Source: Candidatus Binatia bacterium (lineage in GTDB: Bacteria > Desulfobacterota > Binatia > Bin18). From it: DNA of 64,000 nucleotides. The notes under the pieces are model-generated. The model saw only the letters and a program-made list of their open reading frames with translations, did not search any database and was not told the DNA's origin. The DNA is taken from contig OY761159.2 in the NCBI GenBank assembly GCA_963664395.2, positions 3,904,001-3,968,000 on the forward strand. Direction: 5' to 3'. Of this stretch, positions 727 through 56,331 are shown piece by piece (position 1 is the stretch's first letter; every line of letters begins with the position of its first letter). A program made the position numbers and the translations under genes.

Positions 727-728
727 CA

Positions 729-6184: not shown

Positions 6185-6240
6185 GTCGTCTCTCTGGACG
6201 AGACGGGGTGCATAGTGGGGAATAGGAGGAAGGACCCGCC

Positions 6241-6861: not shown

Positions 6862-6879
6862 CCCCTTAGTACTCCACCT

Positions 6880-8678: not shown

Positions 8679-8685
8679 CTTGCTC

Positions 8686-11331: not shown

Positions 11332-11364
11332 CGACAGGCGAAGAGTACTGAAGGAAGAGCGGAT

Positions 11365-12231
11365 ATGGCGGAACAGGCAGTCGGCGTGAATCAAGAGGAG
11401 GGGGAGGCGATTTGGCTCAAATGTGCGACGTGTCAAGAAATTTTGTTTCGGAAGGAGGTTGAGCGGCGCCTTTTTATTTGCCCCAAATGTGGCGCTCATC
11501 TCCGCCTGACCGCCGAACAACGACTGTTCACTATCGTTGACCGCGGCTCGTTCATTGAGCATGCGCAGCACGTCCACTCTACCGACCCCCTGGCCTTCAC
11601 CGACCGGAAACCCTACGTACAGCGATTAGCTGGTGCGCGCAGTCGGTCGGGGCGTGCCGAAGCCGTTGTCTGCGGGGTGGCGACTATTGACGGTCGTCGG
11701 GTTGCTCTCGGCTGTTTCGATTTCTTCTTTCTCGGTGGGAGTATGGGGACCGCTGTGGGAGAGAAACTGACTCGCATTATCGAGTACGCCAGTGCAGAAC
11801 GGTTGCCTGTTATTTTCTTCTCGGCCTCCGGCGGTGCCAGGATGCAGGAAGGCGTGCTCTCGCTGATGCAGATGGCAAAGATCTCTATGGCGCTGGGTCG
11901 TTTGCGAGAAGCTGGGTTGCCTTATATATCGGTGTTGACCGATCCGACGACGGGTGGTGTTGCCGCCTCGTTGGGTATGCTGGGTGACATCAACATTGCT
12001 GAGCCGGGAGCCTTGATCGGCTTTGCCGGACAACGGGTTATTGAGCAGACCATCCGGGAAAAGCTTCCCCCCGGTTTTCAGCGCGCAGAATTTTTGCTGG
12101 AACATGGCATGGTAGACCTTGTGATTGAGCGTAAGGATTTACGCGGTGTGTTAAGCCAGTTACTAGACCTCTTATGCAAGCCTGCCCCTCCTGTTGACTC
12201 AACCCCAAAAGCGTCACCCACTTCCCCATAA
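11365..12231 (+). CDS. accD: Acetyl-CoA carboxylase carboxyltransferase beta subunit
   Basis: CxxC...CPKC zinc finger, GGSMG, SGGARMQEG, PTTGGV, FQRAEFLLEHG. Confidence 0.97.
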   Translation: MAEQAVGVNQEEGEAIWLKCATCQEILFRKEVERRLFICPKCGAHLRLTAEQRLFTIVDRGSFIEHAQHVHSTDPLAFTDRKPYVQRLAGARSRSGRAEAVVCGVATIDGRRVALGCFDFFFLGGSMGTAVGEKLTRIIEYASAERLPVIFFSASGGARMQEGVLSLMQMAKISMALGRLREAGLPYISVLTDPTTGGVAASLGMLGDINIAEPGALIGFAGQRVIEQTIREKLPPGFQRAEFLLEHGMVDLVIERKDLRGVLSQLLDLLCKPAPPVDSTPKASPTSP

Positions 12232-13568: not shown

Positions 13569-15766
13569 TGCAAAGAATTTTCTGTTTTCCTCTCTTTCTC
13601 ACTCTTTTTTGGCTCATCCAGGGAGCAGTCGTCTCCGCGCAAGAACCCGTAGTGGTCAATGCTGACACCCTGAACTATGAAGAGGACGGAGAGACGGTGT
13701 CGGCGCAAGGAGACGTCGTTGTCACCAAGGGGAAAACGACGCTCACCGCAGATACGGTTACCGTGAGCCGGACCAAGAATGAACTCAAGGCCCGAGGAAA
13801 TGTCGTGCTGCAAGACCCCCAAGGGACTATTCAGGCTGAGGCGTTGCGACTGGAACTAACGGATGAAACCGGCGAAATTGAAAATGGTACGATTCGTATT
13901 CCCAGTCATCAATATACGATTACCGGCAGGAAACTCCAAAAATCATATGGTCAGACCTACCATATTGAAGACGGAACAGTAACAACATGTGAGTGTGAGA
14001 GCGGAGAAGCCGCGGATTGGAGTCTGGATGCCAACGAATTTGACGTCACGCTCGGTGGAACAGGAAAACTTCGTGGAGGGCTCTTTCGGGTCCGAGACAT
14101 CCCGCTCTTGTATGTCCCCTATGGCGTGATTCCTGTCCGCAAGGAACGACAAAGTGGTGCGCTCGCTCCCCGGTACAGCTTTTCGAGTAAACGCGGCTTC
14201 CAGTGGGAACAACCCTTTTACTGGGCAATGAGTAAGAGTCAGGATCTCACACTCACGGCGGATATTGAAACCTCCTCCCGGGTTGGGTTCTTGGGAGAAT
14301 ACCGCTATGCGCCGAGTGAGCGGGTAGAGGGCGAGTTCTCCGCTTCATATTTTAATGAACAGATTCGTGGGCCAGCTTCGACGACCTCACCTATTAATCG
14401 CTGGAGTGTCACGGGCGCGCATAGACAGCGTTTGCCCGCTGACATGGAGTTGTATAGTGATCTCTTTTTTGTGAGTGACGATTTCTTCTTGCGTGAACTC
14501 AACGTCTCCTTCCATCCAGGACTCGAAGACCGTCAGCTCCGCTCACGGCGATTTACAGACTCCCGAGTTGGCGGCGTGAAAACCTGGAAAAATGCTCAGG
14601 TTCGTTCCGAGGCGCGTTATTATCAAGATTTGCGGAACGATCAGGATGATGCCTTTCAGGTCCTTCCGCATATAAGTTTTCAGGGCCAACGCCGCTTTTG
14701 GAACGACCACATTGAAACCGGTGTGAGCATACAAGGAAGCCATTTCTTTCGGAATCGTGGCTACTACGGCCAACGCTTTGATCTTGCTCCCTGGGTATCA
14801 ATCCCATTCTCCTTAGGCCGATATGTCTATGGCTCAGTCAAGGCGACTGGGCGGGAAACAGTCTACCATATGAGTTCCCGCGCTCGTGGGCGACCGACCG
14901 TGCCTGGGTCTGGACACCTGAAGAGCACGCAAACCAGAGAGATGGTCCGGCTTCAGGCTGAGCTCGGAACACGCCTCTCTCGGGTGTTCGATGTCGGCTG
15001 GGGGCGCGTGAGCAAACTCCAGCACGTTATCGAGCCGCAGGTCTCGTTTTCCTATGTCCCCCAGGTTGGCCAGGATGACCTGCCACTCTATGATGCGCTC
15101 GACCGGATGAACCGACGCAGTCTCTTTGTGTATGGTGTTTCAAACAGGCTGCTTGGAAAATTTGACCCGCTCCCCGGCGCTTCCAATCGGCAAGCCCGCG
15201 TCCGTGAGCTGATTCGTTTATCGGTGACCCATGCCTATGATCCGAGCCGGCGTCTGCGAGAAGAGGGCGAGCGATTTGGCCTGAGTGAGACGGACCAGCA
15301 TTTTTCTGATATGGACATCAGGGCACATATCCGTCCCTTCTCACTCTTTACCATCGCAGCGGAGACGACGTATGATGTCGATCAAGGGGATATGATTGCC
15401 GCCCGCATTGGTGGGCATATACGCGATCCACGCCCGCTCCCCGAGACGAGCCCGTTGCTGCGCCATCTGCGTCGACGGACGAGTATCGGGGTTTCGTATC
15501 GGACAATTGCCGACCGGTTGCTGAAAGAGGTCAATTCCCGGGTTATCCTCCGATTGAACGAATATCTGACGGCAGCCTATTTCACGCGCTATGATCTGAA
15601 TGATAAATCGTTTATTGGGTCGCGCTATTTCTTTCGTGTCCTCTCTCCGCAGAAGTGTTGGACGTTTGATTTCGGGGTTGTTGAGAAGGTCAACCCTGAT
15701 GAGGTTGAGTTTCGTTTTTCCTTGTCGTTGGTTGGCATTACTTCAGCCGGAAAGGGCTCATTTTGA
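13562..15766 (+). CDS. lptD: LPS assembly protein LptD
   Basis: Signal peptide, OstA-like N-terminal domain (ADTL.Y...A.G.V), TTC..W, PLLYVP...RQSG.L.P, HVIEP; aromatic beta-barrel; follows folC. Confidence 0.9.
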   Translation: MVMQRIFCFPLFLTLFWLIQGAVVSAQEPVVVNADTLNYEEDGETVSAQGDVVVTKGKTTLTADTVTVSRTKNELKARGNVVLQDPQGTIQAEALRLELTDETGEIENGTIRIPSHQYTITGRKLQKSYGQTYHIEDGTVTTCECESGEAADWSLDANEFDVTLGGTGKLRGGLFRVRDIPLLYVPYGVIPVRKERQSGALAPRYSFSSKRGFQWEQPFYWAMSKSQDLTLTADIETSSRVGFLGEYRYAPSERVEGEFSASYFNEQIRGPASTTSPINRWSVTGAHRQRLPADMELYSDLFFVSDDFFLRELNVSFHPGLEDRQLRSRRFTDSRVGGVKTWKNAQVRSEARYYQDLRNDQDDAFQVLPHISFQGQRRFWNDHIETGVSIQGSHFFRNRGYYGQRFDLAPWVSIPFSLGRYVYGSVKATGRETVYHMSSRARGRPTVPGSGHLKSTQTREMVRLQAELGTRLSRVFDVGWGRVSKLQHVIEPQVSFSYVPQVGQDDLPLYDALDRMNRRSLFVYGVSNRLLGKFDPLPGASNRQARVRELIRLSVTHAYDPSRRLREEGERFGLSETDQHFSDMDIRAHIRPFSLFTIAAETTYDVDQGDMIAARIGGHIRDPRPLPETSPLLRHLRRRTSIGVSYRTIADRLLKEVNSRVILRLNEYLTAAYFTRYDLNDKSFIGSRYFFRVLSPQKCWTFDFGVVEKVNPDEVEFRFSLSLVGITSAGKGSF

Positions 15767-42080: not shown

Positions 42081-43046
42081 TTACCCCTGCGGCTTCACCT
42101 CTGCGTTCACGCAGTTCAGGGGCATGTCACCTCTGCGCAGCCGGTTCACATTCTCAGCCACGCGCTTGGCAATGCCTTGGAGGCTGACGTCGGTTGCGCC
42201 ACCAATGTGGGGGGTGGCCAGGACGTTGTGCTGGAAAATTTCGTCGTTCGGATCAAAGGGTTCGGACCAGAACACGTCAAGGCCGGCGCCCGCAATACGG
42301 CCTTCCCTCAGGGCGGTAAGAAGTGCAGCGTAATCTAACACCGGTCCACGGGCGACGTTGATCACAAAGGCTTCCGGCTTCATGCAGGCGAATTCAGCCT
42401 GGCCCATGAGGCCGCGCGTTTCGTCATTGAGGGGCGGGGCGGTAATCACAAAATCGGCCGCTCGCAGTACCGCGTGCAGCTCGTCTTGGGCAACATGGGT
42501 GATGAGCAGACCGTCGTCCGGCTTGTCTGGCGTCGGCCCTCGGCGGGAAACGGCGAGAATGTCCATTTCAAAGCCGGACAAGCGCCGGGCAAGCGCCCGC
42601 CCAATTCCACCATAGCCGATAATGGCTGCTGTTTTGCCCTTGAGCGCCTGTCCCATTGGCGAACCCAGGACTTTGTTTTGGATACTCGCTTGAGCCTGCC
42701 GATATTTTCTGGCTAAGCCGAGCATGAAAAGCAGGGCGAGTTCAGCAACGGATTCGGCATTGCCGGTTCCCGCCGCCGGCACATTGGCAACATAGATCCC
42801 TGCGGCAGTGGCGGCTGGAATATCTACCGAGTCCAAACCCGCGCCATACTGCTGGACGAGCTTCAACCGGGGCGAGCGCATCGCTTCTCTCCCGATTGGC
42901 GAGACCGTTGGGATCAATATATCCGCATGCTGTGCTACTTCCGGAACGGTATCGGGTGGACAATCACGAATTTCGTCCTCAGGAAGTTCCTGCTGAAGAA
43001 TCCGGCACACATAGGTCAAGCCCTCTCGGCAAAAGTAAATCCGCAT
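42081..43046 (-). CDS. D-isomer-specific 2-hydroxyacid dehydrogenase
   Basis: GAGLD, NA.SVAE, IIGYGGIG, INVARG, AGLDVF..EP, TPHIGG. Confidence 0.92.
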   Translation of the reverse strand: MRIYFCREGLTYVCRILQQELPEDEIRDCPPDTVPEVAQHADILIPTVSPIGREAMRSPRLKLVQQYGAGLDSVDIPAATAAGIYVANVPAAGTGNAESVAELALLFMLGLARKYRQAQASIQNKVLGSPMGQALKGKTAAIIGYGGIGRALARRLSGFEMDILAVSRRGPTPDKPDDGLLITHVAQDELHAVLRAADFVITAPPLNDETRGLMGQAEFACMKPEAFVINVARGPVLDYAALLTALREGRIAGAGLDVFWSEPFDPNDEIFQHNVLATPHIGGATDVSLQGIAKRVAENVNRLRRGDMPLNCVNAEVKPQG

Positions 43047-43148
43047 AACGCCTTCCCATACTCACTTGATCGTTTGTGCTGCCTGGCCGATAATAGGCCG
43101 CCCCGATGATAGGCTGCCTGGGCCAAGAAGAAAAGAAGGGAGATCCTA

Positions 43149-43937
43149 ATGGACTATAGCCGCTATGAATGTCTCAGCGCAGAGCGTGAAGGGAAGGTGC
43201 TGACTGTCTCATTCAATCGTCCGCAAGCACTGAATGCCATTAACGCTCAGTTGCATACCGAACTGTCTCGGATTTTCGCCGATATCGCCCAGGATACAGA
43301 GACGGAGGCTGTGGTGTTGACCGGCAAAGGCCGCGCGTTCTGCGCGGGTGGCGATATCAAGTGGTTTCAGGATATGACGTCCGCGCAGTTGGATGCGTTG
43401 TTCGCCGAGGCGCGCAAAATTATTATCGACATGCTGGAAGTGGAACAGCCGATTATCGCTGCGGTCAACGGTCCGGCGACCGGTTTGGGCGCGACCCTGG
43501 CGCTCTTCTCTGATGTCATTTATGCGGCGGATAACGCAAAAATTGGTGACCCGCATGTCCGCGTCGGTGTGGTCGCCGGAGACGGGGGAGCCATTATCTG
43601 GCCCTGGCTGATTGGGACGGCCAAAGCCAAAGAGTTTCTCATGACCGGCGACTTAGTGAAGGCAGAAGAGGCCGAGCGCATTGGTCTAGTCAACCATGTT
43701 GTTCCTGCGGATCAGTTAATGGAAGCAGCCATGGCCTTTGCTACCCGAATGGCCAATGGCCCGCGTATGGCGATTCGTGGGACCAAGGTCTCGGTGAATA
43801 AAATCCTCCGCGATACGGTAAACCTGGTGCTCGATACTTCGCTGTCGATAGAAAAACATTGCTTTCATACGCAAGACCATAAAGAAGCGATTCAGTCTTT
43901 TGTGGAGAAACGGGCGCCCCGATTTACAGGGAAATAA
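43149..43937 (+). CDS. Enoyl-CoA hydratase/isomerase (crotonase) family
   Basis: [33 protein letters not shown]. Confidence 0.92.
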
Positions 43938-43969
43938 ACACCGCCACCCCTTGGGACCCTTCGTGCTTC

Positions 43970-44407
43970 ATGGCCGCTGTCACGCAAACTCAGCCCCGCT
44001 ATCCGTCTCGCCCGACACGTCCGATTATGGTGACCGTTGCCGCGTGTCTGGTGGCTGCCTATGCGGCCGTGTTTATTGTCTGGGATATTATTGCTCCGTT
44101 TGAGCGGCCCTATGCTGAAGGCCCTGTCAGTGTCATTTTGGGCTTTCGCGTGTTCGGCCTGTCTGCCCAACTCATGCACGCCTTGCAACTCATGGTCGCG
44201 GGCAGCCTGGCGTATCGTCTCTGGAAGATGCAGCGCTTTGGTTGGCATTTGGTCGTGTTTAGTGTTGGTTATATGCTGGTCTCATACATGATATGGGCAC
44301 AGGTCTATAACGAGTCTGAGCACATCGTTGGCTTTGGTCTGTTCTATGCTGTGATACTCCTTATTCTGCTGGCTCTTACCTTTCCGCACCGAAGAAAGTT
44401 TATGTGA
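43970..44407 (+). CDS. Hypothetical membrane protein (about 4 TM helices)
   Basis: Four hydrophobic segments; co-oriented and closely spaced with neighbours. Confidence 0.7.
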   Translation: MAAVTQTQPRYPSRPTRPIMVTVAACLVAAYAAVFIVWDIIAPFERPYAEGPVSVILGFRVFGLSAQLMHALQLMVAGSLAYRLWKMQRFGWHLVVFSVGYMLVSYMIWAQVYNESEHIVGFGLFYAVILLILLALTFPHRRKFM

Positions 44408-44450
44408 CGTGTCCCAGGGCGTGAGGATCGCATGGGGTTAAACTGGAGGG

Positions 44451-45275
44451 ATGATGGCTGATCGTACTGAAAATGTGGGGAGCTTCCTTGATTTCTCCGG
44501 GAAAACCGCACTGGTGGCGGGTGTGCTGGACGAAAATTCCATAGGCTGGCCCATTGCGAAGATGCTTAACGACGGTGGCGCTCGGATTGCGCTCTCCATT
44601 CAGCGTAAGGCCGTCCGGCGTATGATGGGAGACATCCCGGACCAACTCAATAATCCCCTGATTACTGAGTGCGATGTGAGCAAGGACGAGCAGGTTGAAC
44701 GGCTTTTCTCACAGGTGGAGCAGGAGTTTGGGCACCTGGATTATCTTATTCACTCTATTGCGTATGCCCCGCCAACGTCTTTTGGGCAGCGTTTCATTAA
44801 CATCGCGCGCGCGGATTTCGCCCTGGCCATGGACGTCAGCGCGTATTCGCTTATCACGTTGGCCCATGGTGCTTTCCCGCTCATGAAGGACCGTGGCGGG
44901 TGCATTTTGGCCATGACCTATTACGCCGGCGAAAAGGTCATCCCTGGCTATCAGTTGATGAGTATTACCAAAGCGGCGCTCGACAATATCATCAGGAATC
45001 TTGCCTTTGACCTGGCTCCGCATCGCATCCGAGTGAATGGTCTTTCCCCTGGTCCGACTGCAACCAAGGCCGGAACCAGTATCCCTGGTTTCGAGCTCAT
45101 GCAGAATCATATGCGCGAATATGCGCCGTTGCGGGAGGAAATTCGGAACACCGACGCCGGCAAAGCCGCCCTTTTCTTATGCAGTCCAATGGCTGAAAAA
45201 ATTACCGGCGAGATCGTGCATATTGACGGTGGCTATAACATCATGGGGATGACGCTGAAGCCGCCTGAGGCATAG
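44451..45275 (+). CDS. fabI: Enoyl-ACP reductase FabI-like
   Basis: GV....SI.W.IA, CDV, HSIAYAP, VSAYSL, MTYY, Y..M...KAAL, ITGE..HIDGG. Confidence 0.88.
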   Translation: MMADRTENVGSFLDFSGKTALVAGVLDENSIGWPIAKMLNDGGARIALSIQRKAVRRMMGDIPDQLNNPLITECDVSKDEQVERLFSQVEQEFGHLDYLIHSIAYAPPTSFGQRFINIARADFALAMDVSAYSLITLAHGAFPLMKDRGGCILAMTYYAGEKVIPGYQLMSITKAALDNIIRNLAFDLAPHRIRVNGLSPGPTATKAGTSIPGFELMQNHMREYAPLREEIRNTDAGKAALFLCSPMAEKITGEIVHIDGGYNIMGMTLKPPEA

Positions 45276-45320
45276 CGGGGGCGTACCGGAAGTCCCCCTG
45301 TCACCCATTAAAACAGAAGA

Positions 45321-46490
45321 TTGAGCATGCAAACAGTTGAACCCCAAGCAGTTGGTATGGACCCGGCCCGTGTCGAGCGTTTCTTTTCAGTGGTGGAACG
45401 TAAAATCGAGGCAGGCTGGTTGTTTGGCGGCGCGTTTCTCCTAGCCCGGCGCGGAAAGATTGCTGCCGCGCGAGCGCTTGGCCACGCCCAACCGCGGGAG
45501 GGTCGGACGGCTAAAACAGATGACATCTTCTGCCTCTTTTCAACCACCAAGCCCATTACGGCTACGATGTTACTCATGAAGGTTGACCAGGGTGAGGTCC
45601 AACTGTTTGATAAGGTCGCGGATTATATCCCGGAGTTTGCTGCTGCCGGCAAGCGGAGTGTTACCGTCTCTCAAGTGATGACTCACACGGCCGGATTCCC
45701 AACAATGGCACTGGACTGGCCTATGTCAAAGTGGGGAGATTGGGAGGCGACGATCGCGCGCATCTGTGCGCAGCCACTGGAGTTTGAACCGGGAACAGCC
45801 GTCCACTACCACGCGCTTACGGGATCGTGGATTTTAGCTGAGATCGCCCGTCGGGTAGATGGCGGCAAGCGAAGCTTTGCCCAAATGTGTGAAGCAGACC
45901 TGTATGGCCCTTTAGGTATGAACGACTCCTACATGGGAGTCCGGCCCGACATGCAAGAACGCCGTGTTCCAGTCCAGGCGTTGGATGCGGGTGGTGTGCC
46001 GTTTCCCATGTCATTTCTGGAAGCGTTTAACGCTCCTGAAGTGCAGGCCGCTGCTATTCCAGGTGGTGGCTCGTATTCCACTATTCATGATCTGGCCCGC
46101 TTCTACCAAATGTGGCTCAACGGAGGCGAGCTTGACGGTGTCCGTTTACTCAGCCCAGCCCTGGTTGATGTGGCGACCACGATTCATACCGGCGCTATGG
46201 AAGACCGACTGCTCGAACCCATTCGGGTGGCAAAACAGTGGCCGTTTGCCCCGGCGAATCGAGGCCTGGGGTATTGGGTCCGCGGCAGCGGTATCTTCCC
46301 CACATATTTTGGCTCGCTCGCCTCGCCACGGACGTATGGACATGCCGGAGCAAGTAGCATCATGGCCTGGGCTGACCCGGTTCGGGCACTGACTTTCGTG
46401 GGTCTGACAAGCGGTCTTATTGAGGAGCCGCGGAGCATTGAGCGCTGGGCGTTGTTTTCCGATTTGGCTCAGGCGTGTGTTGTTGACTAA
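45321..46490 (+). CDS. Serine hydrolase, beta-lactamase-related (EstB-like esterase)
   Basis: FSTTK (SxxK), MTHTAG, FEPG....YH, YGHAG; no signal peptide. Confidence 0.88.
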   Translation: MSMQTVEPQAVGMDPARVERFFSVVERKIEAGWLFGGAFLLARRGKIAAARALGHAQPREGRTAKTDDIFCLFSTTKPITATMLLMKVDQGEVQLFDKVADYIPEFAAAGKRSVTVSQVMTHTAGFPTMALDWPMSKWGDWEATIARICAQPLEFEPGTAVHYHALTGSWILAEIARRVDGGKRSFAQMCEADLYGPLGMNDSYMGVRPDMQERRVPVQALDAGGVPFPMSFLEAFNAPEVQAAAIPGGGSYSTIHDLARFYQMWLNGGELDGVRLLSPALVDVATTIHTGAMEDRLLEPIRVAKQWPFAPANRGLGYWVRGSGIFPTYFGSLASPRTYGHAGASSIMAWADPVRALTFVGLTSGLIEEPRSIERWALFSDLAQACVVD

Positions 46491-46523: not shown

Positions 46524-47219
46524 ATGAAACCAAAGCTGACCTCAGCCGCTATTCTGACAATTATCCTGCTTATCGGTGTCCTAGCGGCTGGGAATTACGC
46601 CGTCTTGCACAACGGACCCCTTGGCCAAGTCATTGTGAGCTGGCTTAAGAGTATGGTTGGAGCAGGCTGCTCTGCTTCGCTGGTGTACTTTATTGGAGCG
46701 CCCGTCATTGTTGGACTGCTACTCCTGCTTATTGTTCCGCGCTGTGTGGCACTTGAAGAGGACGCGCAAGAGCCGGCTGAAGAGCGGCCGCTGGCACCAA
46801 AGCAGCCGTACAAACCACCCGTACCGACAAAGCCCTCTGCGGATGCCGCTGTCCAGCTTTTGGCGCTCCTGCAGCGCGAAGGGCGGCTGGTTGATTTCCT
46901 GCGTGAAGATATCGGGGCGTATGACGATACGCAGGTTGGCGCTGCAGTACGGACCATTCATGAGGCGTGTCGAAAAGTTTTGACTGAGCACCTCAACATT
47001 GAGCCGGTCTTAGACGGAAGCGAAGGGGATACGGTCACCGTTCCTGAAGACTTTGATCCCTCTGCTGTTCGCCTGACCGGACATGTCAGTAGCGAAGCAC
47101 CCTTTCGAGGGGAGCTGCGCCATGCCGGATGGAAGGCCACCTCTGTGACACTGCCCGAACAGCCAAAGGGCCAGGATCCCCAGGTCATTGTGCCAGCAGA
47201 AGTGGAAATCCCAGAGTAG
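46524..47219 (+). CDS. DUF2760 family membrane-anchored protein, GrpE-like C-terminal domain
   Basis: Two N-terminal TM helices, Pro-rich linker, A.QLL.LLQREGRLVDFL.EDI..YDD.QVGAAVR.IH...FDP...L.G...PF.G.LRH.GW...PAEVE. Confidence 0.8.
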   Translation: MKPKLTSAAILTIILLIGVLAAGNYAVLHNGPLGQVIVSWLKSMVGAGCSASLVYFIGAPVIVGLLLLLIVPRCVALEEDAQEPAEERPLAPKQPYKPPVPTKPSADAAVQLLALLQREGRLVDFLREDIGAYDDTQVGAAVRTIHEACRKVLTEHLNIEPVLDGSEGDTVTVPEDFDPSAVRLTGHVSSEAPFRGELRHAGWKATSVTLPEQPKGQDPQVIVPAEVEIPE

Positions 47220-47265
47220 GCATTCAGCCTTTCGGGGTACTATCAGCAAGGTCGGAGAGCCAAAT

Positions 47266-47293
47266 GTCGGGGCGGTTCGCGAGCCGTCCTGAC
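47266..47293. repeat. REP-like palindromic element
   Basis: GTCGGGGCGGTT-CGCG-AGCCGTCCTGAC forms a 12-bp hairpin with G-U pairs; single copy in the window. Confidence 0.45.
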
Positions 47294-47325
47294 GAACAAT
47301 TGTGTCATTGTTATAGGCGAGTATT

Positions 47326-49140
47326 ATGACAACACCCTCACGTTACATCGTTGGTATTGACCTGGGTACGACAAATAGTGTGGTGGCCTATGTCGATACG
47401 CAGGACGAAGAACTACCCATACGGATTCTGCGCATTCCTCAGCTTACGACCCCCGGCAATGTTGAGGAACGGACGACGCTTCCCTCCTTTCTCTACATTC
47501 CGACGAAACAGGAATTCCCCGAGGGAAGCTTGGCTTTGCCGTGGACGGATGAGTTGAGCTTTGCTGTCGGGACGCTTGCTCGAACGCGTGGAGCTGAAGT
47601 CCCGGGACGCCTCATTTCGTCTGCCAAGTCGTGGCTGTGCCATACCGGCATGGATCGCACTACCCCCATCTTGCCCTGGGATGGCGGCGATGAAGTCCAA
47701 AAAATGTCGCCGCTCGAGGTTGCCGCCCAGTACCTTGCCCACATCCGCCAGGCATGGAATGCACAGATGGTACGCGCTGACTCGGAAAACAGTCTGGAAC
47801 AGCAGGATGTTTTCCTGACGGTCCCAGCCTCTTTTGATGCGGTTGCACGCGAGCTGACGGTTCAGGCTGCTGAGCACGCTGGCTTCGTGAATGTGACTTT
47901 ACTCGAAGAACCCCAAGCTGCCTGTTACTCCTGGATTGACCAATCCGGCGACGCCTGGAGAAGGCAGGTGCGCGTAGGCGACATCATACTGGCCTGCGAC
48001 ATTGGCGGGGGGACCACGGATTTCAGCCTTATTGCAGTAGCTGAACAGGACGGAGAGCTGGAACTCGAGCGTGTTGCTGTCGGAGATCATATTCTGCTGG
48101 GCGGCGATAACATGGACCTGGCCCTTGCGTATGCCGTCCAGCAACGCCTGGCGCAAAAAGGGACCAGACTTGATGCGTGGCAGCTGCGTGGGCTGTCGCA
48201 GAACTGTCGAGCGGCCAAAGAGAGTTTGCTCCAGCTCGATCACGAGCAGAACTATCCCCTGACGATTCTTGGACGAGGAAAAAGTGTGATTGGGGGGGCG
48301 CTACGGACCGAACTTTCGTACGACGAGGTTGAGAAGGTATTGGTCGATGGGTTCTTTCCTTACTGCACTGCGGACGAACGCCCCCAGACGAGCCGTCGCG
48401 TTGGATTTCAGGAAATAGGGCTCCCCTATGCGGCTGATGCTGGTGTGACGAGACATCTTGCGAAATTTCTGGCTCAGCACGTATCAATCGACGCGGAAAC
48501 GGGAACCTTTCTGCACCCTACGGCCTTGCTGCTTAACGGAGGGACGCTGAAAGCTGCATTGCTACAGGACCGCTTGGTGAGAGTGGTCAATACCTGGCTT
48601 GAAAAGGACGGTGGAGAACCGCTCCGGGTCCTTGAAGGGATTGACCTTGACCATGCCGTTGCACGTGGAGCGGCTGCGTATGGGCGCGCCCGACGTGGGC
48701 ACGGTGTGCGTATCCGCGGGGGAACCGCTCGTTCCTATTACATTGGTATCGAGAGTTCCATGCCGGCTGTTCCTGGCATGCCGGCTCCACTCAAAGCCTT
48801 GTGTACGGTCCCGTTTGGTATGGAGGAAGGAACTGAGTGTGATATCTCCGGCCAAGAGTTCGGGCTGATTGTCGGCGAGCCGGCCGAATTTCGATTTTTT
48901 GGCTCAACGACGCGACGAGAAGACCGCCTCGGTGACCTGATTGAAGCGCCGGATGAGGAGGTCGAAGCTCTTTCTCCTTTGGAAACGACACTGTCATGGG
49001 CGGGGCGAGAAGGGACCCTGGTCCCAGTTCGGTTGCGCGCACATGTAACCGCAGTTGGGACGATAGAGCTCTGGGCTGTAGCGACAGACGAAAATCAGCG
49101 TTGGAAGTTGGAGTTCAACGTACGAACAACGGAAGGGTAG
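47326..49140 (+). CDS. Atypical Hsp70-family protein (604 aa)
   Basis: GIDLGTTNS, TVPASFD, LLEEPQAA, DIGGGTTD, LGGDNMD, LNGG, AVARGAA; non-canonical C-terminus. Confidence 0.92.
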   Translation: MTTPSRYIVGIDLGTTNSVVAYVDTQDEELPIRILRIPQLTTPGNVEERTTLPSFLYIPTKQEFPEGSLALPWTDELSFAVGTLARTRGAEVPGRLISSAKSWLCHTGMDRTTPILPWDGGDEVQKMSPLEVAAQYLAHIRQAWNAQMVRADSENSLEQQDVFLTVPASFDAVARELTVQAAEHAGFVNVTLLEEPQAACYSWIDQSGDAWRRQVRVGDIILACDIGGGTTDFSLIAVAEQDGELELERVAVGDHILLGGDNMDLALAYAVQQRLAQKGTRLDAWQLRGLSQNCRAAKESLLQLDHEQNYPLTILGRGKSVIGGALRTELSYDEVEKVLVDGFFPYCTADERPQTSRRVGFQEIGLPYAADAGVTRHLAKFLAQHVSIDAETGTFLHPTALLLNGGTLKAALLQDRLVRVVNTWLEKDGGEPLRVLEGIDLDHAVARGAAAYGRARRGHGVRIRGGTARSYYIGIESSMPAVPGMPAPLKALCTVPFGMEEGTECDISGQEFGLIVGEPAEFRFFGSTTRREDRLGDLIEAPDEEVEALSPLETTLSWAGREGTLVPVRLRAHVTAVGTIELWAVATDENQRWKLEFNVRTTEG

Positions 49141-49199
49141 CGGGCCGCCCGCCGGCTGGCCTGTGCCCTCAATTCTCTGTTTCACGAGATACTAGAATA

Positions 49200-52085
49200 A
49201 TGACGACTGCTGAGGCGGCGCAGCCGCGCTACATTGTTGGCATTGACCTGGGCACGACAAACTGTGCGGTCGCGTATATTGATACCGCCCGCTCGGCCGA
49301 GATCCTGCCCTTTTCCCTTCTGCAATTAATCAACGAAGCAACGGTTGCTGCTCAACCAACGCTTCCGTCGTTTCTGTATTTACCCGGCCCGCGCGATCTG
49401 CCGGAGGGCAGTCTGAGCGTACCGTGGGACCGTGAGCCGACGTTTGTTGTGGGGCAGTTTGCCCGGGTCCAAGGCGCGCGCATACCCGGCCGTCTCGTCT
49501 CTTCAGCCAAGTCGTGGATGTGCCATGCCGGTGTGGACAGACAGGCCGCTATTTTACCCTGGGATGGACTGTCTGAAGTAAAAAAAATATCACCGGTTGA
49601 GGCGGCCGCTCGCTATCTGCTGCATCTTCGTCAAGCGTGGCGGCACGCAATGGGCAAAGCCTATCCGCTGGAAGAACAACAGATCATCCTGACCGTTCCC
49701 GCCTCCTTTGATGAAGTCGCCCGCGAACTGAGCGTAGAAGCGGCCGGGCGCGCCGGGCTCTCTCAACTGACGCTCTTAGAAGAGCCCCAAGCGGCCTTAT
49801 ACGCCTGGGTAGGCGCGCATACGGACTCATGGCAGACGCAACTCAAGGCAGGTGACGTTATTTTGGTGTGTGACGTTGGTGGGGGGACGACTGATCTCAG
49901 TCTGATGACGGTCACACAAGGCAAGAATCAGCTCGGCTTGGAACGGATCGCTGTCGGCGAGCATCTGTTGCTTGGGGGCGATAATATGGACGTGGCGCTG
50001 GCACGTCTGATCGAAGGTCGTCTCAACGCGGGCAAACGGCTGGACTCCCAACGCTGGCATCTATTGTGTCAGTTGTGTCGGACGGCCAAAGAAGATCTGT
50101 TTGCAGATGCGTTGGAAGAAACGGTGCGGCTGACCTTGCCCGGTCGAGGCAGCTCGGTTGTGGGCGGTACGCTGAGTGACGGCCTGACCCGAGCAGACAT
50201 TGAACAGATCGTCCTTGGCGGGTTTTTCCCCAGCGTCGAAGCTGAGGCGACACCCCGGCGAGGCGGACGGGCCGGACTCCAGGAGTTCGGGCTTCCATAT
50301 GAAACAGAACCGGAGATATTACGCCACATCGCATTTTTTCTGAGACAGCATGCCGACGAGGTGGCACAGACGTCCCTGGGGTTAGCACGTCCTGATGCCA
50401 TCTTGTTTAACGGTGGAGCGCTGACTCCGCTGGCCATACGCGAGCGGATTGCACAGACGGTTGCGGCCTGGTTCCAAAGCGAAGAATCTCACGGCCAAGA
50501 CGATTGGCAGCTCTCCGTCCTTTCCCATTCCAATCTCGATTTAGCCGTCGCCCATGGAGCGGCCTATTACGGCTTGGTGCGGCGCGGCCACGGGGTCCGA
50601 ATTGGCGGAGGGAGTGCCCGTTCGTACTATGTTGGCGTTGGCGGAACGCCCCGGAATTGGCAGGCCAAACAGGCTGACGCTTCAGTATCTGCTGTCTGCC
50701 TCGTACGCAGAGGCATGGAGGAAGGCGAGGAGATTCATCTGACGGAACAGGAGTTCGAGGTCCTGGCCAATCAGCCGGTGAGTTTCCCCCTGTATGCCTC
50801 CAGTACTCGAAGCGGTGACCAACCAGGAGAACTGCTCAGGCTGGACTCGGACGAGCTTGCGTTCTTACCTCCAATCAAAACAGTCCTGCGATTTGGCAAA
50901 AAAACCGGGGTCACCAAAATTCCAGTACAAGTCTCCGCTCGTTTTACTGAAGTCGGGACGCTCGAACTGTGGTGCGAAGCGCGTCAGACTGGCCACCGTT
51001 GGCGCTTGCAGTTTCAGTTGCGCGGAGAAGGGCAGAGTGTAGCGCCGGCGTCCCAAGCGATAGTGAGTGAAGAACAGGTCCTTGATGAAACTCGTTTGAC
51101 GAATGCAACGACTCTTTTGCGGCGTGTGTTTGTGACAGGAAAAACAGAGGGAGAGGACAGTGGCCCCCAGACCCTTCCCCGGCAGCTTGAAGAAATTCTT
51201 GGAACAACGAGAGACAGTTGGCCGCTGAGTGCTATTCGCGCCTTGTGGGATGTCTTGTGGGACGTTCAAAAAGGACGGGCGAAGGGGCCTGAGTATGAAG
51301 CCCGGTGGCTGAATCTTATTGGCTTTCTGTTGCGTCCGGGTTTTGGCCATCCAACGGATGAATGGCGCATGCAACAAGTCTGGAAACTCTACGGTTGGGG
51401 AATCACGCATGCCAAGGCTACGCAATGTCGGGCTGAATGGTGGAATATGTGGAAGCGAGTAGTGGGTGGCTTGAGCCGACAGCAGCAGACGGTACTCCAG
51501 CACGAGATTGCACCTCGCATTCTGCCTATTTCGTCTAAGGCAAAAAATCAGAAGCAATCCGGTAGCCGGAAAGCCGGTCCGCAGGAAGTACGCGAGATGT
51601 GGCAGGTGGCGGCAAGCTGTGAGAGGCTTGATGCCGAAGCTAAAAATAGTATGGGTGAGGCTCTGGTCCGACTTATCGAAAAAGGGAAGGCGTCAGAGCA
51701 GGAAATCTGGGCGCTGTCTCGTCTCGGAGCGCGGTCGCTCATGTACGGCCCGGCCAACTGTGTGGTCCGTAAAGAAAAAGCGGCCCGGTGGGTCCAGCGT
51801 CTGCTTGAAAAAACCTGGCGTCAGCCCGAGGCGACCGCGTTCGCGCTGACGCAAATCGCCCGCTGTACGGGCGACCGCACGCGCGATCTTGATGACGCAT
51901 TGCGTGAACGAGTTGCCGAGCGACTCGCATCCTTTTCGTTCGGCCAGCGGTGGGCTAAGCAGGTCCGAGAGGTCGTTCGGCTTGAGGCCAGGGAGCAGGC
52001 GCGTATTTTGGACGAGACGCTGCCGGCCGGCTTGCAGATCAAGAACATTGAAGACGAGGAGGGCGATACGCGCAGGCTGTCTTGA
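49200..52085 (+). CDS. Atypical Hsp70-family protein with C-terminal helical extension (DUF3731-like)
   Basis: Same Hsp70 motifs (GIDLGTTNC, DVGGGTTD, LGGDNMD) plus a ~350 aa Trp-rich tail (WLNLIGFLLRPGFG..DEWR, WW..W.R..GGL); start reassigned to ATG 49200. Confidence 0.9.
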   Translation: MTTAEAAQPRYIVGIDLGTTNCAVAYIDTARSAEILPFSLLQLINEATVAAQPTLPSFLYLPGPRDLPEGSLSVPWDREPTFVVGQFARVQGARIPGRLVSSAKSWMCHAGVDRQAAILPWDGLSEVKKISPVEAAARYLLHLRQAWRHAMGKAYPLEEQQIILTVPASFDEVARELSVEAAGRAGLSQLTLLEEPQAALYAWVGAHTDSWQTQLKAGDVILVCDVGGGTTDLSLMTVTQGKNQLGLERIAVGEHLLLGGDNMDVALARLIEGRLNAGKRLDSQRWHLLCQLCRTAKEDLFADALEETVRLTLPGRGSSVVGGTLSDGLTRADIEQIVLGGFFPSVEAEATPRRGGRAGLQEFGLPYETEPEILRHIAFFLRQHADEVAQTSLGLARPDAILFNGGALTPLAIRERIAQTVAAWFQSEESHGQDDWQLSVLSHSNLDLAVAHGAAYYGLVRRGHGVRIGGGSARSYYVGVGGTPRNWQAKQADASVSAVCLVRRGMEEGEEIHLTEQEFEVLANQPVSFPLYASSTRSGDQPGELLRLDSDELAFLPPIKTVLRFGKKTGVTKIPVQVSARFTEVGTLELWCEARQTGHRWRLQFQLRGEGQSVAPASQAIVSEEQVLDETRLTNATTLLRRVFVTGKTEGEDSGPQTLPRQLEEILGTTRDSWPLSAIRALWDVLWDVQKGRAKGPEYEARWLNLIGFLLRPGFGHPTDEWRMQQVWKLYGWGITHAKATQCRAEWWNMWKRVVGGLSRQQQTVLQHEIAPRILPISSKAKNQKQSGSRKAGPQEVREMWQVAASCERLDAEAKNSMGEALVRLIEKGKASEQEIWALSRLGARSLMYGPANCVVRKEKAARWVQRLLEKTWRQPEATAFALTQIARCTGDRTRDLDDALRERVAERLASFSFGQRWAKQVREVVRLEAREQARILDETLPAGLQIKNIEDEEGDTRRLS

Positions 52086-52142: not shown

Positions 52143-54488
52143 TTACTCTGCCTGTTTCACCGCTCCTGCTTGCATCAACTGATCAATCCGGTCCGGATCG
52201 TATCCAACAACTTCTCGGAGGACTTCTCGTGTATGCTGGCCCAACATCGGCGCAACGCGAGGAATACTCGTAGGGGTCCGGGAGAATTTGGCAAAGAGAC
52301 CTGTTTGTCGCACTTCTCCCCACTCCGGATGGGTATGGGTCGCGATCAAGTCGTTTGCTGCGATGTGTTCATCCTCAAAGAGTTCTGCGATTGATAACAC
52401 CGGGGCGCAGGGGACCCCGGCTCGGTCGAGTTGAGCGATCCAGTCCGCGGTTGGCTGTTTTGCAAAGATGGTGGCGAGAGATTGCGCCAGTGGCCCTTCG
52501 ACCTCGCCTGCGCGTGCTGTGTTGAACGAAAAATCTCGGAATAGGGACGGGTAGCCTACTGCCTGACCAAGTTTCTGCCAGTGGGCAGCTTCCATCACGG
52601 CCAGGAAGAACGAGGAATCAGCGCTCGGATAAATGCGATACAAGGGGCTCTTCCCCCATAGATCAGCTCCACCGTTTTCACAGTCCGGTCGGTTGGGATA
52701 GAAAATAAAATCACCGGATTGGACGGCCATGGCGGCATTGGCCAAAGAGGTCTCAACATGTTGTCCCTTGCCCGTTCGAGTCCGCGCGTACAGCGCCGCA
52801 CTCACACCATAGGCGGTTAAGGTCGCCGCGGCGTAATCGCATATCCCACAGGTCAAATAGAATGGTGGCTGGCCATGGCCGCCTTGCGCACGCATCACGC
52901 CGGAGCGTGACTGGAGGAGGGGGTCAAATCCCGGCTGATTGTAATCCGGGCCGTCCGCTCCAAAGCCGGTGACAGAGGCCTGAATAATGCTCGGATTGAT
53001 GCTGCTCAAGGTCTCGTAATCAAGGCCATAGCGCTTTGTTGCGCCGGGCCGCAAATTCTCGACCACAACGTCAGCGTTGCGTACCAGGTCATAGACGACC
53101 TCTTGTCCTGCGGGCGTATTCAGATTGACTGCTATCCCGCGCTTCCCTTGGTTCCAACCCAAAAAGCCAAAACCAAAAGTACGGAACGCATCACCAGAGA
53201 AAGTCTCAACCTTAATGACATCCGCGCCAAGCTGGGCCAGGACCATCGGTCCTAAGGTTCCGGCGATATAGCTGGAGAAGTCAAGCACGCGAACACCGGC
53301 AAGCGGTGGGGAAGAGAAGGTTGTTTTCCTGGATGCTGAGACAGCTCTGGGAACATGCCGGGGCTCTGATTGCCACAAGCCGGCTTGCAGTTCGTCCGTA
53401 TGTTGCCCTAACACCGGCGCGGGACGAGTGATGGAACCTGGCGTATCAGACATCCGTATAGGCACACCCATTTGGATGGTCGGTCCGAGTTCCGGGTCTT
53501 CCACTTCCACTCGCATGCCGTTGTGAATGACTTGTGGGTGCGCAATGAATTCTTGACGACTCATGACCGGTGCTGAAGGAACATCATGCTCACGCAGAAT
53601 GCCCACCCACTCTTCGCGTGACTTGGTCTCCATAATGGCGGAGATGGTATCTGCAAGTTCTTGGCAGTCTTCTGGCCGGATGCCCCAGGGTGCTTTTTCA
53701 TAGCGCGGGTCTGCGGTCCATTCCGGATGTTCCAGCGCCAGGCAGAATTTATTCCAAAAGGTGGCATTCCCACAGGCGACAAACAGCCAGTCGTCAGAGG
53801 CTTTATACAGGCGGTAGACAGGAATAGGCCCGAGCGGGTCTTGACGACTGCTAAACAAGCGCAACATATCAGGGTGGTAGAGTGTCGCCCCAGTTTGCAT
53901 CGCAAACACGCCGGCTAACCACGAGACTTCGAGGTGCTGGCCTTGCTGGCTCTTCTGGCGCTCAAGCAACGCGGCGCAGATAGCGCTCGAAGCGATAAAC
54001 GCCGCTCCATAACTGGCAATGGGTACTACGAGATACACGCCGCCAGCACGATGCGACCACTGACTGCCGTGGAGTCCGCCGCATGCTGCAACCAGGGCAT
54101 CGTCCGCATACCGCTCGGCATGTGGCCCCGTAGTCCCAAAGGCCGGCATGTGGCAGTAGATGAGACCTGGATTTTCCTCGCGGAGTGCAGCATACGCAAG
54201 ACCGCGGGCTGTTTCTGTCCCAGGCTTGTGATCGGTAATGAGGATGTCAGATTCTGCGACAAGCTGCCGAAGCGACTGCCGGCCGGATTGAGAAGAAAGA
54301 TCGGCCACAATGCTCCGTTTACTCCGATTCCAAATATGAAATCCGGGCGTGCCGCGCATGGAGTCGCCCTGTGGGTGTTCGACCTTGATGGCCTCAGCCC
54401 CTTGCTCGGCAAGGAGCATGCCCGTGTACGGGGCTGCTATGCCTTGGGCACATTCAAGGATGCGTATGCCTGCGAGTGCTCCTGCCAT
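52143..54488 (-). CDS. Class III CoA-transferase (CaiB/BaiF), two tandem domains
   Basis: L.G.R.L...GA..IKVE...GD...WN..KR...AP.LGQHT occurs twice. Confidence 0.92.
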   Translation of the reverse strand: MAGALAGIRILECAQGIAAPYTGMLLAEQGAEAIKVEHPQGDSMRGTPGFHIWNRSKRSIVADLSSQSGRQSLRQLVAESDILITDHKPGTETARGLAYAALREENPGLIYCHMPAFGTTGPHAERYADDALVAACGGLHGSQWSHRAGGVYLVVPIASYGAAFIASSAICAALLERQKSQQGQHLEVSWLAGVFAMQTGATLYHPDMLRLFSSRQDPLGPIPVYRLYKASDDWLFVACGNATFWNKFCLALEHPEWTADPRYEKAPWGIRPEDCQELADTISAIMETKSREEWVGILREHDVPSAPVMSRQEFIAHPQVIHNGMRVEVEDPELGPTIQMGVPIRMSDTPGSITRPAPVLGQHTDELQAGLWQSEPRHVPRAVSASRKTTFSSPPLAGVRVLDFSSYIAGTLGPMVLAQLGADVIKVETFSGDAFRTFGFGFLGWNQGKRGIAVNLNTPAGQEVVYDLVRNADVVVENLRPGATKRYGLDYETLSSINPSIIQASVTGFGADGPDYNQPGFDPLLQSRSGVMRAQGGHGQPPFYLTCGICDYAAATLTAYGVSAALYARTRTGKGQHVETSLANAAMAVQSGDFIFYPNRPDCENGGADLWGKSPLYRIYPSADSSFFLAVMEAAHWQKLGQAVGYPSLFRDFSFNTARAGEVEGPLAQSLATIFAKQPTADWIAQLDRAGVPCAPVLSIAELFEDEHIAANDLIATHTHPEWGEVRQTGLFAKFSRTPTSIPRVAPMLGQHTREVLREVVGYDPDRIDQLMQAGAVKQAE

Positions 54489-54526
54489 GGCCGATTTTCC
54501 TCCTACCAGATTCCCGCTTCTGTATA

Positions 54527-55609
54527 TCAGGCGTCTCTCCCGACCGCGTCTCGCAGATGGGAGAATCCTTCTCTCTCCATAATCTGTATCAGCCCACGAA
54601 CAATCCGCTGGGCGAGAAAAGGGCCTTCATAAATCATCCCAGTATAAATCTGCACTAATGATGCCCCGGCACGGATTCGCTCGTACGCATCTTCTGCTGA
54701 GAATATTCCGCCCACACCAATAATCGGCAGCTTGCCTTCAACTGCGCGATACATGCTGCGTAGCACTTCGCGTGCTCGCCCAGCGAGTGGTCGGCCACTC
54801 AGTCCCCCTGTTTCATGTGATGCCGGGCGGAGTCCGGGGCGCGCAACGGTTGTATTTGTTGTAATCAAGCCAGAGACGCCAACCGAGAGGGCAAGCCGGG
54901 CGATTTCTCCAATTTCAGCCTCGCTGAGATCTGGCGCGATTTTGACTAAGAGTGGTTTTTGAGAGGTGTGCTCTGTCTCGGCTCCCTGTCGAATGTGGGC
55001 AAGGAGTGCCTCGAGTATTTTACCCAAGCGTTCCGTCTCTTGCAGTTTGCGGAGCTCCGGCGTGTTGGGGGAGCTGACATTCACGACGAGATAGTCCGCA
55101 AACGGGAGGAGTTTTTCGCAACTTTCGAGGTAGTCCCCCACGGCATCTTCAAGCCGGGTGACTTTTGATTTGCCGATATTGAACCCCAGAGGAACAGGCC
55201 GAGGACGCTGCGGAGACAGCAAGGCTGGCAAGCGCTGGGCGATGGCGCAAGCGCCATCGTTGTTAAAACCCAAACGGTTAATGAGCGCGCTGTCTTGAGC
55301 AAGACGAAAAATACGCGGTTTTGGATTGCCCGGCTGAGCTTTGGCTGTGACTGTTCCTAATTCAGCAAACCCGAATCCCAACGTAGACCAGACCAAGGGA
55401 ACCGCCGCGTTTTTGTCGTAGCCAGCCGCCAGACCGACAGGGTTGGGGAAGCGCAGGCCCCAGAGGTCTTGTGCAAGAAGTTGATGGCTGCATGCCGGTG
55501 TTGGTCGCCGCTGAGATGCCTGGAGCAGTTTAAGGGCATGGATTGACAGCTGGTGGGCGTGTTCAGGGTCGAGAGTAAAAAAGAACGGGCGCAGGAAGGA
55601 GTAGAACAT
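54527..55609 (-). CDS. pyrD: Quinone-dependent dihydroorotate dehydrogenase
   Basis: LAAGYDKN, GNPKPRIFR, INRLGFNN, NVSSPNTP, VKIAPD, GGLSG, LVQIYT. Confidence 0.96.
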   Translation of the reverse strand: MFYSFLRPFFFTLDPEHAHQLSIHALKLLQASQRRPTPACSHQLLAQDLWGLRFPNPVGLAAGYDKNAAVPLVWSTLGFGFAELGTVTAKAQPGNPKPRIFRLAQDSALINRLGFNNDGACAIAQRLPALLSPQRPRPVPLGFNIGKSKVTRLEDAVGDYLESCEKLLPFADYLVVNVSSPNTPELRKLQETERLGKILEALLAHIRQGAETEHTSQKPLLVKIAPDLSEAEIGEIARLALSVGVSGLITTNTTVARPGLRPASHETGGLSGRPLAGRAREVLRSMYRAVEGKLPIIGVGGIFSAEDAYERIRAGASLVQIYTGMIYEGPFLAQRIVRGLIQIMEREGFSHLRDAVGRDA

Positions 55610-55617
55610 ACACCGAC

Positions 55618-56331
55618 TTATGCGTCTTTAAGAGACGCGAGATTTGTATGCTTGAGCAATTCGAGGGTCTGAGACGCTGCTGCCTGATGAGCGCGTTTTT
55701 TACTGCGCCCCTCGCCACTGCCGTATATTCTTCCAGCGATGAAAACTTGGCTGACAAAACGTTTTTCGTGGTCTGGTCCGTTCACTTCAACAACTTGATA
55801 AGAGGGCGTTTCCTTAAATATTTTCTGGGTAATCTCCTGCAAACGCGTCTTGTCATCAAATGTGGCAATCCGCTCTGTCTCCAGTAGGTCTTCGGCAAAA
55901 TGCGCGGCAATGAGTTGGGTTGCCGGCAGAAAGCCGCCATCAAGGTAGATCGCACCCAGCATGGCCTCGTACGCAGCGGCCAGAATGGACGATTTCTCTC
56001 GACCCCCACTGCGCTCTTCGCCCCGCCCCATACGCAGCCAATCGCCTAGAGAGAGGGTATGGGCCTTGACTGCGAGTACTTCCGCATTGACCAGCGAGGC
56101 GCGCATTTTTGATAAATCTCCCTCGCGGTATCGAGGAAACTTGCGGAAGAGCAGGTCACTCATCACAAGTCCTAAAACGGCGTCGCCTAAGAATTCCAGC
56201 TTTTCGTTTTGATCTTCGCCCTCCTCACGTTGGACAGAACGGTGCGTTAAAGCGAGTTGGAGGAGGTCCGGGTTGGTAAACGTATAGCCAAGTATGGACT
56301 GAAGCGCACTGATGTCGGTCGGATCAGGCAT
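55618..56331 (-). CDS. rnc: Ribonuclease III
   Basis: ALTHRS, NEKLEFLGDAVL, EA..GAIYLD.G, dsRBD K..LQE...GPDH...G.G.SKK. Confidence 0.96.
   Translation of the reverse strand: MPDPTDISALQSILGYTFTNPDLLQLALTHRSVQREEGEDQNEKLEFLGDAVLGLVMSDLLFRKFPRYREGDLSKMRASLVNAEVLAVKAHTLSLGDWLRMGRGEERSGGREKSSILAAAYEAMLGAIYLDGGFLPATQLIAAHFAEDLLETERIATFDDKTRLQEITQKIFKETPSYQVVEVNGPDHEKRFVSQVFIAGRIYGSGEGRSKKRAHQAAASQTLELLKHTNLASLKDA

Follow-up and report, generated by a model that had tools for sequence, protein, structure and literature searches.

Gene organization of the locus

The window analysed here is a 64,000-nucleotide stretch of the genome of a Candidatus Binatia bacterium (assembly GCA_963664395.2, contig OY761159.2, positions 3,904,001 to 3,968,000 of the forward strand), and our subject is a cassette of three genes within it, encoding a small DUF2760 protein and two paralogous Hsp70-like ATPases, here called HspA and HspB. 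The cassette is another copy of a catalogued, uncharacterised family, which public records annotate as a "DUF2760 domain-containing protein" and two "Hsp70 family protein" genes. A first-pass annotation of the sequence had described three co-oriented genes. The plus strand indeed carries three open reading frames (ORFs), found at 46524-47219, 47326-49140, and 48996-52085, and together with the alignments of homologues these gave the following gene calls.

46524..47219, + strand: DUF2760 gene, 231 amino acids (Pfam PF10816, AlphaFold2 model, alignments A1 and A2)
47326..49140, + strand: hspA, 604 amino acids, Hsp70-like (PF00012 at 67 bits; catalytic residues aligning with those of the genome's own DnaK; member of the A clade)
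49200..52085, + strand: hspB, a 961-amino-acid Hsp70-like ATPase with a DUF3731 tail (PF00012 and PF12531; alignment A6; tree)

The hspB frame is open from 48996, and this longer version would overlap hspA by 145 nucleotides, but the alignments of homologues begin at the Met encoded by ATG 49200 and therefore support this codon as the start of the 961-amino-acid protein. HspA and HspB share 48% identity over 606 residues. A scan of eight flanking ORFs (42081-46490 and 52143-56331) detected no J-domain, GrpE, or HrcA family member, in agreement with the earlier observation that dnaJ, grpE, and hrcA are not adjacent.

Two Hsp70-like ATPases with an altered linker and without a helical lid

Both paralogues match PF00012 (HSP70) above its cut-off of 20.6 bits, HspB with 66.5 bits at residues 128-338, and in both the match covers part of the nucleotide-binding domain only. 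The motifs GIDLGTTN, EEPQAA, CD(I/V)GGGTTD, GGDNMD, and GVRI(R/G)GG(T/S)ARSYY are present in HspA as well as in HspB, which confirms the ATPase motifs quoted in the first-pass annotation. Comparison with the genome's own DnaK showed that the residues matching DnaK D8, K70, E171, D193-G197, and D200 are retained in both proteins, and across a 40-sequence HspB alignment (A6) the DnaK-matching catalytic residues are invariant. A difference from DnaK lies at the counterparts of N170 and T173, which we take to be J-domain contacts and which are Glu and Gln throughout the HspA/HspB family. The scores against full-length chaperone models fell far short of the respective cut-offs throughout: the NCBIfam DnaK models TIGR02350 and NF001413 gave 56.9 and 61.2 bits for HspA and 67.4 and 63.3 bits for HspB (cut-offs, 822.55 and 648), the HscA models TIGR01991 and NF003520 gave 82 to 93 bits (cut-offs, 708.55 and 620), and NF008673/PRK11678 "molecular chaperone," presumably the YegD model, gave 28.9 and 33.8 bits (cut-off, 331).

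At the position of the DVLLLDV-type linker of DnaK, the cassette Hsp70s have a conserved Gly/Arg-rich segment, GVR(I/V)GxGSARSYY, and the canonical helical lid is absent from HspA and HspB alike. Both peculiarities had been pointed out before, and the analysis substantiates them for the two paralogues. Each ATPase has a diverged domain resembling the beta-sandwich of the Hsp70 substrate-binding domain (SBD-beta). In HspB, the region following the nucleotide-binding domain consists of three parts, the first of which is this sandwich.

50592..51017, + strand: Gly/Arg-rich segment GVRIGGGSARSYY, then the SBD-beta-like sandwich, HspB residues 465-606 (model m312cb15972b7, Foldseek)
51087..52040, + strand: DUF3731 tail, modelled as an alpha-solenoid of the armadillo/HEAT type (HspB residues ~630-947)

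The AlphaFold2 model m312cb15972b7 of HspB residues 465-961, built from a 40-sequence alignment, reached a predicted local distance difference test (pLDDT) value of 84.8 and a predicted template modelling score of 0.79. Residues 475-606 were modelled as a beta-sandwich, for which Foldseek retrieved the substrate-binding domains of DnaK, BiP, and Kar2 with expectation (E) values of 3e-4 to 4e-3; the superposition on 3h0x comprised 142 columns with a root mean square deviation of 4.5 and a TM-score of 0.51. A disordered linker (residues ~611-622) separates the sandwich from the solenoid. The latter contains the DUF3731 family match, C-terminal to PF00012 at residues 697-947 (PF12531, titled "DNA-K related protein" in Pfam; E 1.8e-83, 280.7 bits against a cut-off of 25), and occupies the position that the helical lid takes in canonical Hsp70s. 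The armadillo-repeat exchange factors HspBP1, Fes1, and Sil1 bind Hsp70 nucleotide-binding domains, and Tim44 tethers Hsp70 at a membrane; none of the four was among the best 50 matches of either HspB fold search, and the likeness is one of idea only.

A membrane-anchored DUF2760 protein that is not recognizably related to GrpE

The product of the first gene belongs to the Pfam family PF10816 (E 1.8e-50; the score of 170.4 bits exceeds the cut-off of 25, and the match extends from position 2 to position 124 of the 124-position profile). Its AlphaFold2 model, based on a 45-sequence alignment, had a mean pLDDT of 84, exceeding 90 over roughly residues 110-231, and consists of an N-terminal hairpin (residues 7-75), a Pro-rich linker of low confidence (residues 76-105), and an alpha/beta domain (residues 106-231) modelled as three helices and four short strands, with an extended C-terminal tail.

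46542..46748, + strand: residues 7-75 of the DUF2760 protein, forming a two-helix membrane hairpin (modelled helices 7-30, 32-45, and 51-75)
46839..47216, + strand: DUF2760 domain proper, residues 106-231 (conserved columns in the 45-sequence alignment A2)

The modelled hairpin bears out the claim that the small protein is membrane-anchored, as does a hydropathy scan, a crude Kyte-Doolittle count in stop-to-stop frames, which detected one or more hydrophobic segments ahead of the DUF2760 domain in 74 of the 81 family ORFs considered (those of the 80 loci described below and that of the window). Since Lys/Arg residues precede the first helix and Arg follows the second (alignment A1), the positive-inside rule suggests that both ends of the hairpin, and hence the DUF2760 domain, are cytoplasmic. 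Near-invariant across phyla are the motif LLQREGRLVDFLxEDI...GAAVRxIH and the C-terminal tail PAEVEI (alignments A1 and A2). This tail is encoded at 47190-47216, and in the representatives checked, the family match ends about 7 residues or less from the end of the protein; it looks like a docking peptide for the solenoid or for the SBD-beta-like cleft. In addition, all of the 45 sequences share H200 and nearly all share H146 and C149, and these three residues might form a metal or redox site.

The first-pass annotation had called the small protein GrpE-like, which implies that it acts as a membrane-tethered nucleotide-exchange factor dedicated to both Hsp70s. This protein is indeed the sole conserved non-Hsp70 partner in the cassette, grpE itself is not adjacent, and the succession of helices and short strands in the DUF2760 domain bears a superficial likeness to the C-terminal half of GrpE. 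However, hhalign assigned a probability of 0.3% to the relationship between the DUF2760 alignment and the genome's own GrpE, and the same value to the comparison with alignment A4, comprising 37 GrpE sequences (31 from the phylum of the window, including its own, and 6 from four other cassette-bearing genomes). Pfam GrpE (PF01025) was not matched at E <= 0.01, a PDB sequence search with the DUF2760 protein returned no match at E <= 10, and Foldseek found no PDB match to the model at E <= 0.001, the helix matches being at noise level. The best 50 matches of a wide VIA fold search likewise included no GrpE chain, but they were dominated by the hairpin, so that the domain was barely tested by this search. 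A search of the ESM Atlas with the DUF2760 domain retrieved DUF2760 clusters only. On the results of the Pfam, hhalign, PDB sequence, and Foldseek searches, homology of DUF2760 to GrpE is not supported. A role in nucleotide exchange is possible by analogy alone, and we regard a dedicated GrpE-like exchange factor as a distinctly unlikely explanation of the DUF2760 protein.

Conservation, synteny, and phylogeny of the cassette

In a scan that used one genome per species, DUF2760 was located at 534 places at least, of which 80 loci were retained together with their flanking sequence, up to 10 kb per side. Seven of these loci break off no more than 1 kb from DUF2760; of the remaining 73, 72 have a family Hsp70 after it in the same orientation. 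The gene order seen in the window recurs among the following arrangements.

43 loci: DUF2760, then A, then B (B split into two frames in 3 loci; A in pieces in 1)
6 loci: DUF2760, then A, then a second Hsp70 left incomplete where the contig stops
11 loci: DUF2760, then B only
11 loci: DUF2760, then A only (4 of them too short to tell)
1 locus: DUF2760, then A, then a B-clade protein without DUF3731
1 locus: DUF2760 without Hsp70 (L066)

Clustering of all flanking ORFs of the 80 loci revealed no further shared family, apart from genes that are locally syntenic in about 15 Binatia relatives. The B-clade protein without DUF3731 is a 624-amino-acid Hsp70 encoded after hspA at L051:5927-7801 and is either an HspB that has been truncated or a variant that naturally lacks the tail. 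In the genome family of G050, extra genes lie between hspA and hspB; these were examined and set aside as unrelated inserts (DUF169 and a coenzyme A [CoA] ligase). A stand-alone HEAT_2-repeat protein of 288 to 294 amino acids is encoded directly after hspA at L070:12556-13422 (+) and L134:2523-3407 (-), with hspB located elsewhere in the genome, and it provides some lineages with an additional, independent solenoid partner.

The families also co-occurred at the level of whole genomes. Among 201 sampled genomes of the phylum, DUF2760 was present in 21, DUF3731 in 20, and both in 20, the single discordant genome, with DUF2760 and without DUF3731, being 62% complete. In 14 of the 20 genomes, the two matches lie within 10 kb on one contig. 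Gene order on one strand and co-occurrence across genomes both place the window's genes in this cassette, the architecture and co-inheritance of which are established. A second member of the HspA/HspB family was found in none of the five B-only genomes tested, and a DUF3731 gene was present elsewhere in all five tested genomes whose locus has no linked B. Therefore, DUF2760 and HspB are the obligate pair, and HspA is dispensable.

Such neighbourhoods had been described as occurring in scattered Proteobacteria, which proved too narrow. The closest related records are titled Candidatus Binatia, and the titles of related loci further name Thermodesulfobacteriota, Nitrospirota, Chloroflexota, Planctomycetota, Rhodothermota/Bacteroidota, Calditrichota, Myxococcota, Eiseniibacteriota, Lentisphaerota, and Pseudomonadota. 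Among 1.84 billion proteins, the DUF2760 family comprised 2144 cluster representatives at E <= 0.001, and in all 150 representatives listed, with lengths of 168 to 316 amino acids, the DUF2760 domain was C-terminal.

A FastTree phylogeny of 87 rows, with SH-like (Shimodaira-Hasegawa-like) supports only, separated the A and B proteins jointly from the genome's DnaK and from its HscA-like protein with a support of 100. HspA forms one clade containing all 44 of its rows with a support of 99. L026_B joins the outgroup, indicating a risk of long-branch artefacts. The topology of the A subtree is mirrored in that of the B subtree, a pattern consistent with an ancient duplication whose products were then inherited together; HspA is an ancient paralogue, absent through loss from some lineages. 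In this tree, the window's HspB groups with those of the B-only Binatia relatives L014, L002, and L008, and its HspA takes a basal position in the Binatia A clade. The lineage of the window has kept an hspA gene that its nearest Binatia relatives lost, which is the sole local peculiarity of this copy. We considered that hspA might also be decaying in the window and rejected this, because the protein deviates from the family at only 4 of 140 near-invariant positions, in all cases conservatively, while other members deviate at 0 to 8.

A proposed self-contained Hsp70-class module at the membrane

In the accepted view, Hsp70s rely on J-proteins and on exchange factors. The cassette has neither, and yet it is co-inherited across many phyla. 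Like DnaK of the DnaK-DnaJ-GrpE system, HspB combines an Hsp70 nucleotide-binding domain retaining all catalytic residues with a sandwich resembling SBD-beta; unlike this system, the cassette has a dedicated membrane-anchored partner, and its Hsp70s have neither the DnaK linker nor the lid. The housekeeping grpE-dnaK-dnaJ locus was found elsewhere in the genome (G000:C1, about 192.8-196.7 kb), and a second full-length Hsp70 of the genome adjoins a small J-domain gene. Together with the co-inheritance of the cassette, this upholds the first-pass proposal of a module separate from the housekeeping DnaK system. We lean, by no great measure, towards the view that the three genes represent one instance of a co-inherited Hsp70-class module that is self-contained, stands apart from DnaK-DnaJ-GrpE, and remodels a membrane-proximal client.

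For binding, orientation, nucleotide cycle, and client of the cassette, we infer the following scheme. The DUF2760 domain would face the cytoplasm and recruit or regulate the ATPases at the inner membrane face, the protein being the anchor and a probable regulator, HspB the core ATPase, and HspA an optional paralogous partner. In place of the lid, the HspB solenoid might serve as a docking platform, either of the client or of DUF2760 via its acidic C-terminal tail, and HspA and HspB might pair via their nucleotide-binding domains in the manner of Hsp110 and Hsp70. ATP-driven remodelling of the membrane-proximal client would proceed without J-proteins or GrpE; the counterparts of the two presumed J-domain contacts of DnaK are replaced throughout the family. 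It is tempting to speculate further that DUF2760 represents a new class of Hsp70 cofactor, combining membrane anchoring with control of the nucleotide cycle, which together with the lidless, solenoid-bearing HspB and often an Hsp110-like paralogue constitutes a J-protein- and GrpE-independent machine for remodelling a specific client at the cytoplasmic membrane face in many phyla. This more far-reaching proposal is tentative, and we would sooner expect it to fail than to hold in full.

The pairing of two paralogous Hsp70s, one of them with altered linker and C-terminal region, recalls Hsp70-Hsp110 and also Ssb-Ssz1 of eukaryotes, as portrayed in a 2026 review (PMC13580251). Bacterial DnaK "derivates" are there called untested, and Hsp110-like co-chaperone roles are proposed in general for DnaK paralogues that contain a nucleotide-binding domain. 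This raises the possibility that the lidless paralogues are co-chaperones of the housekeeping DnaK, acting as Hsp110-like exchange factors or as disaggregation boosters, instead of forming an independent machine. The genome does possess a canonical DnaK, and the DnaK-type linker is absent from HspA and HspB as it is from Hsp110. However, such a role leaves the strict co-inheritance with a membrane-anchored partner and the solenoid tail unexplained, the catalytic motifs of HspA and HspB are fully conserved, and in none of the 80 loci does the cassette lie beside dnaK, dnaJ, or grpE. We consider it unlikely that the paralogues serve as co-chaperones of DnaK. The cassette also differs from the eukaryotic pairs: Hsp110 keeps the helical SBD-alpha, while HspA and HspB are both lidless; HspB lacks a linked HspA in 11 of the 80 loci, and an A-B heterodimer is here hypothetical only.

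Several observations weigh against a self-contained module acting at the membrane. The anchor is not universal, a hydrophobic segment being absent in 7 of the 81 DUF2760 ORFs, and the cytoplasmic orientation of the domain is deduced from charge distribution only. The scan for promoters and terminators yielded 4 and 11 sites, respectively, compared to 4.1 and 10.1 expected from shuffled sequences. On the supporting side, metatranscriptome contigs from a strain 95 to 99% identical to the window were found in four runs of one study; they bridge the DUF2760/hspA junction in three runs and the hspA/hspB junction in one, and one of them extends from the upstream short-chain dehydrogenase/reductase (SDR) gene into hspA. 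Because these contigs are silent on strand, level, and presence of a single transcript, and DNA may have been carried over into the libraries, they are a weak hint that the cassette is transcribed, and the lack of cover of parts of hspB in some runs is uninformative on expression. A further opposing point is the patchy distribution. The cassette, present in the 21 of 201 genomes mentioned above, is missing from three of the four other sampled genomes of the class, and it is accessory even within the genus, since DUF2760 and DUF3731 are both missing from G115, a 100%-complete genome of that genus. It was also found on plasmids or secondary replicons (11 plasmid-collection records, several of them megabase-sized). 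An accessory or conflict system would fit this distribution, too.

Patchiness and plasmid carriage are indeed what would speak for an anti-phage or other conflict system, in which the Hsp70-plus-HEAT protein would be the sensor and the membrane protein the effector or anchor. On the Thiodictyon plasmid pTs485 (L136, locus 1-15073), DUF2760 and hspA lie amid annotated anti-phage genes (DUF3780, DUF1156, PLD-like) and genes for VapC, a Uma2 endonuclease, and a TIR-domain protein, with hspB not annotated adjacent; a Uma2 gene follows hspA in L011 as well. However, on the other two of three plasmids with annotated contexts, the surroundings are of a different kind, with metabolic genes around the cassette on a Comamonadaceae plasmid and groES/groEL near it on a Bradyrhizobium plasmid. 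PADLOC returned weak matches to the candidate PDC-M61B, with E 2.3e-5 for HspA and 1.3e-4 for HspB, but these extend over about 100 residues and are the only matches of the Hsp70s in PADLOC-DB 2.0, where DUF2760 is unmatched; the cassette did not correspond to a known anti-phage system of this database. The 80 loci share no conserved nuclease, McrB/McrC, or other effector in the vicinity of the cassette.

A further argument for a role in conflict is CnuD of the predicted Type III CoCoNuT systems, in which, according to its published description (PMC11090510), Hsp70-like nucleotide- and substrate-binding domains are fused to HEAT-like repeats as in HspB. There, McrC/DUF2357 and an McrB-like GTPase accompany CnuD, and its ATPase motifs are degenerate, whereas those of the cassette are intact, a comparison made by description only. 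Neither an McrB-like GTPase nor McrC/DUF2357 occurs in the flanks of the cassette in the window or is conserved in the 80 loci, and the Type III CoCoNuT association was thus not found. The flanks of the window's cassette are metabolic and are the same in about 15 Binatia relatives. Upstream, they code for a 2-hydroxyacid dehydrogenase, an enoyl-CoA hydratase, an SDR, and a beta-lactamase-fold protein, and downstream for a CoA-transferase III, a dihydroorotate dehydrogenase, and RNase III. Taken with the evidence on its side, we judge the conflict-system explanation to be very unlikely. Among the flanking ORFs is also one of 145 amino acids without a Pfam family, at 43970-44407 (+) between the enoyl-CoA hydratase and SDR genes.

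Relation to catalogued families and significance

Compared to other members of the PF10816/PF12531 cassette, the window copy has the same architecture and gene order and no structural difference, and it differs from its nearest Binatia relatives by the retained hspA. The literature library searched yielded no paper naming DUF2760, DUF3731, PF10816, or PF12531, in line with the earlier statement that no functional description was known. Two experimental leads may concern related proteins. In Vibrio cholerae, VC1373-VC1375 ("DnaK-related protein"), a candidate copy of the cassette, figures only in expression and screen tables and as a HapR-activated promoter in three reports (PMC9201469, PMC5816637, PMC10328515). 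Knockout of Myxococcus xanthus MXAN_5323 (925 amino acids, "cd10170"), a candidate DUF3731 family member, lowered sporulation and oxidative resistance (PMC8265645).

If the cassette is a self-contained module, as we favour, it would represent a different way to run the Hsp70 cycle and to tether an Hsp70 to the membrane. What the analysis of this window adds is the obligate pairing of DUF2760 with the DUF3731-bearing Hsp70, the dispensability of the short paralogue, and the lack of support for the GrpE analogy from sequence or fold. It is thus the family that is of interest to chaperone biology, as the cassette in the window is in no way unusual except for its retained hspA. This gene shows two apparent deletions in the strain represented by the RNA libraries: contigs miss 22 nucleotides at 47803 (run X1, depth 8) and 11 nucleotides at 48944 (runs X2 and X3, depth ~4), each of which would shift the hspA frame, and no repeat is visible at either site. 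In that strain, hspA may be decaying, as in the B-only relatives, or the deletions may be errors of low-depth assembly.

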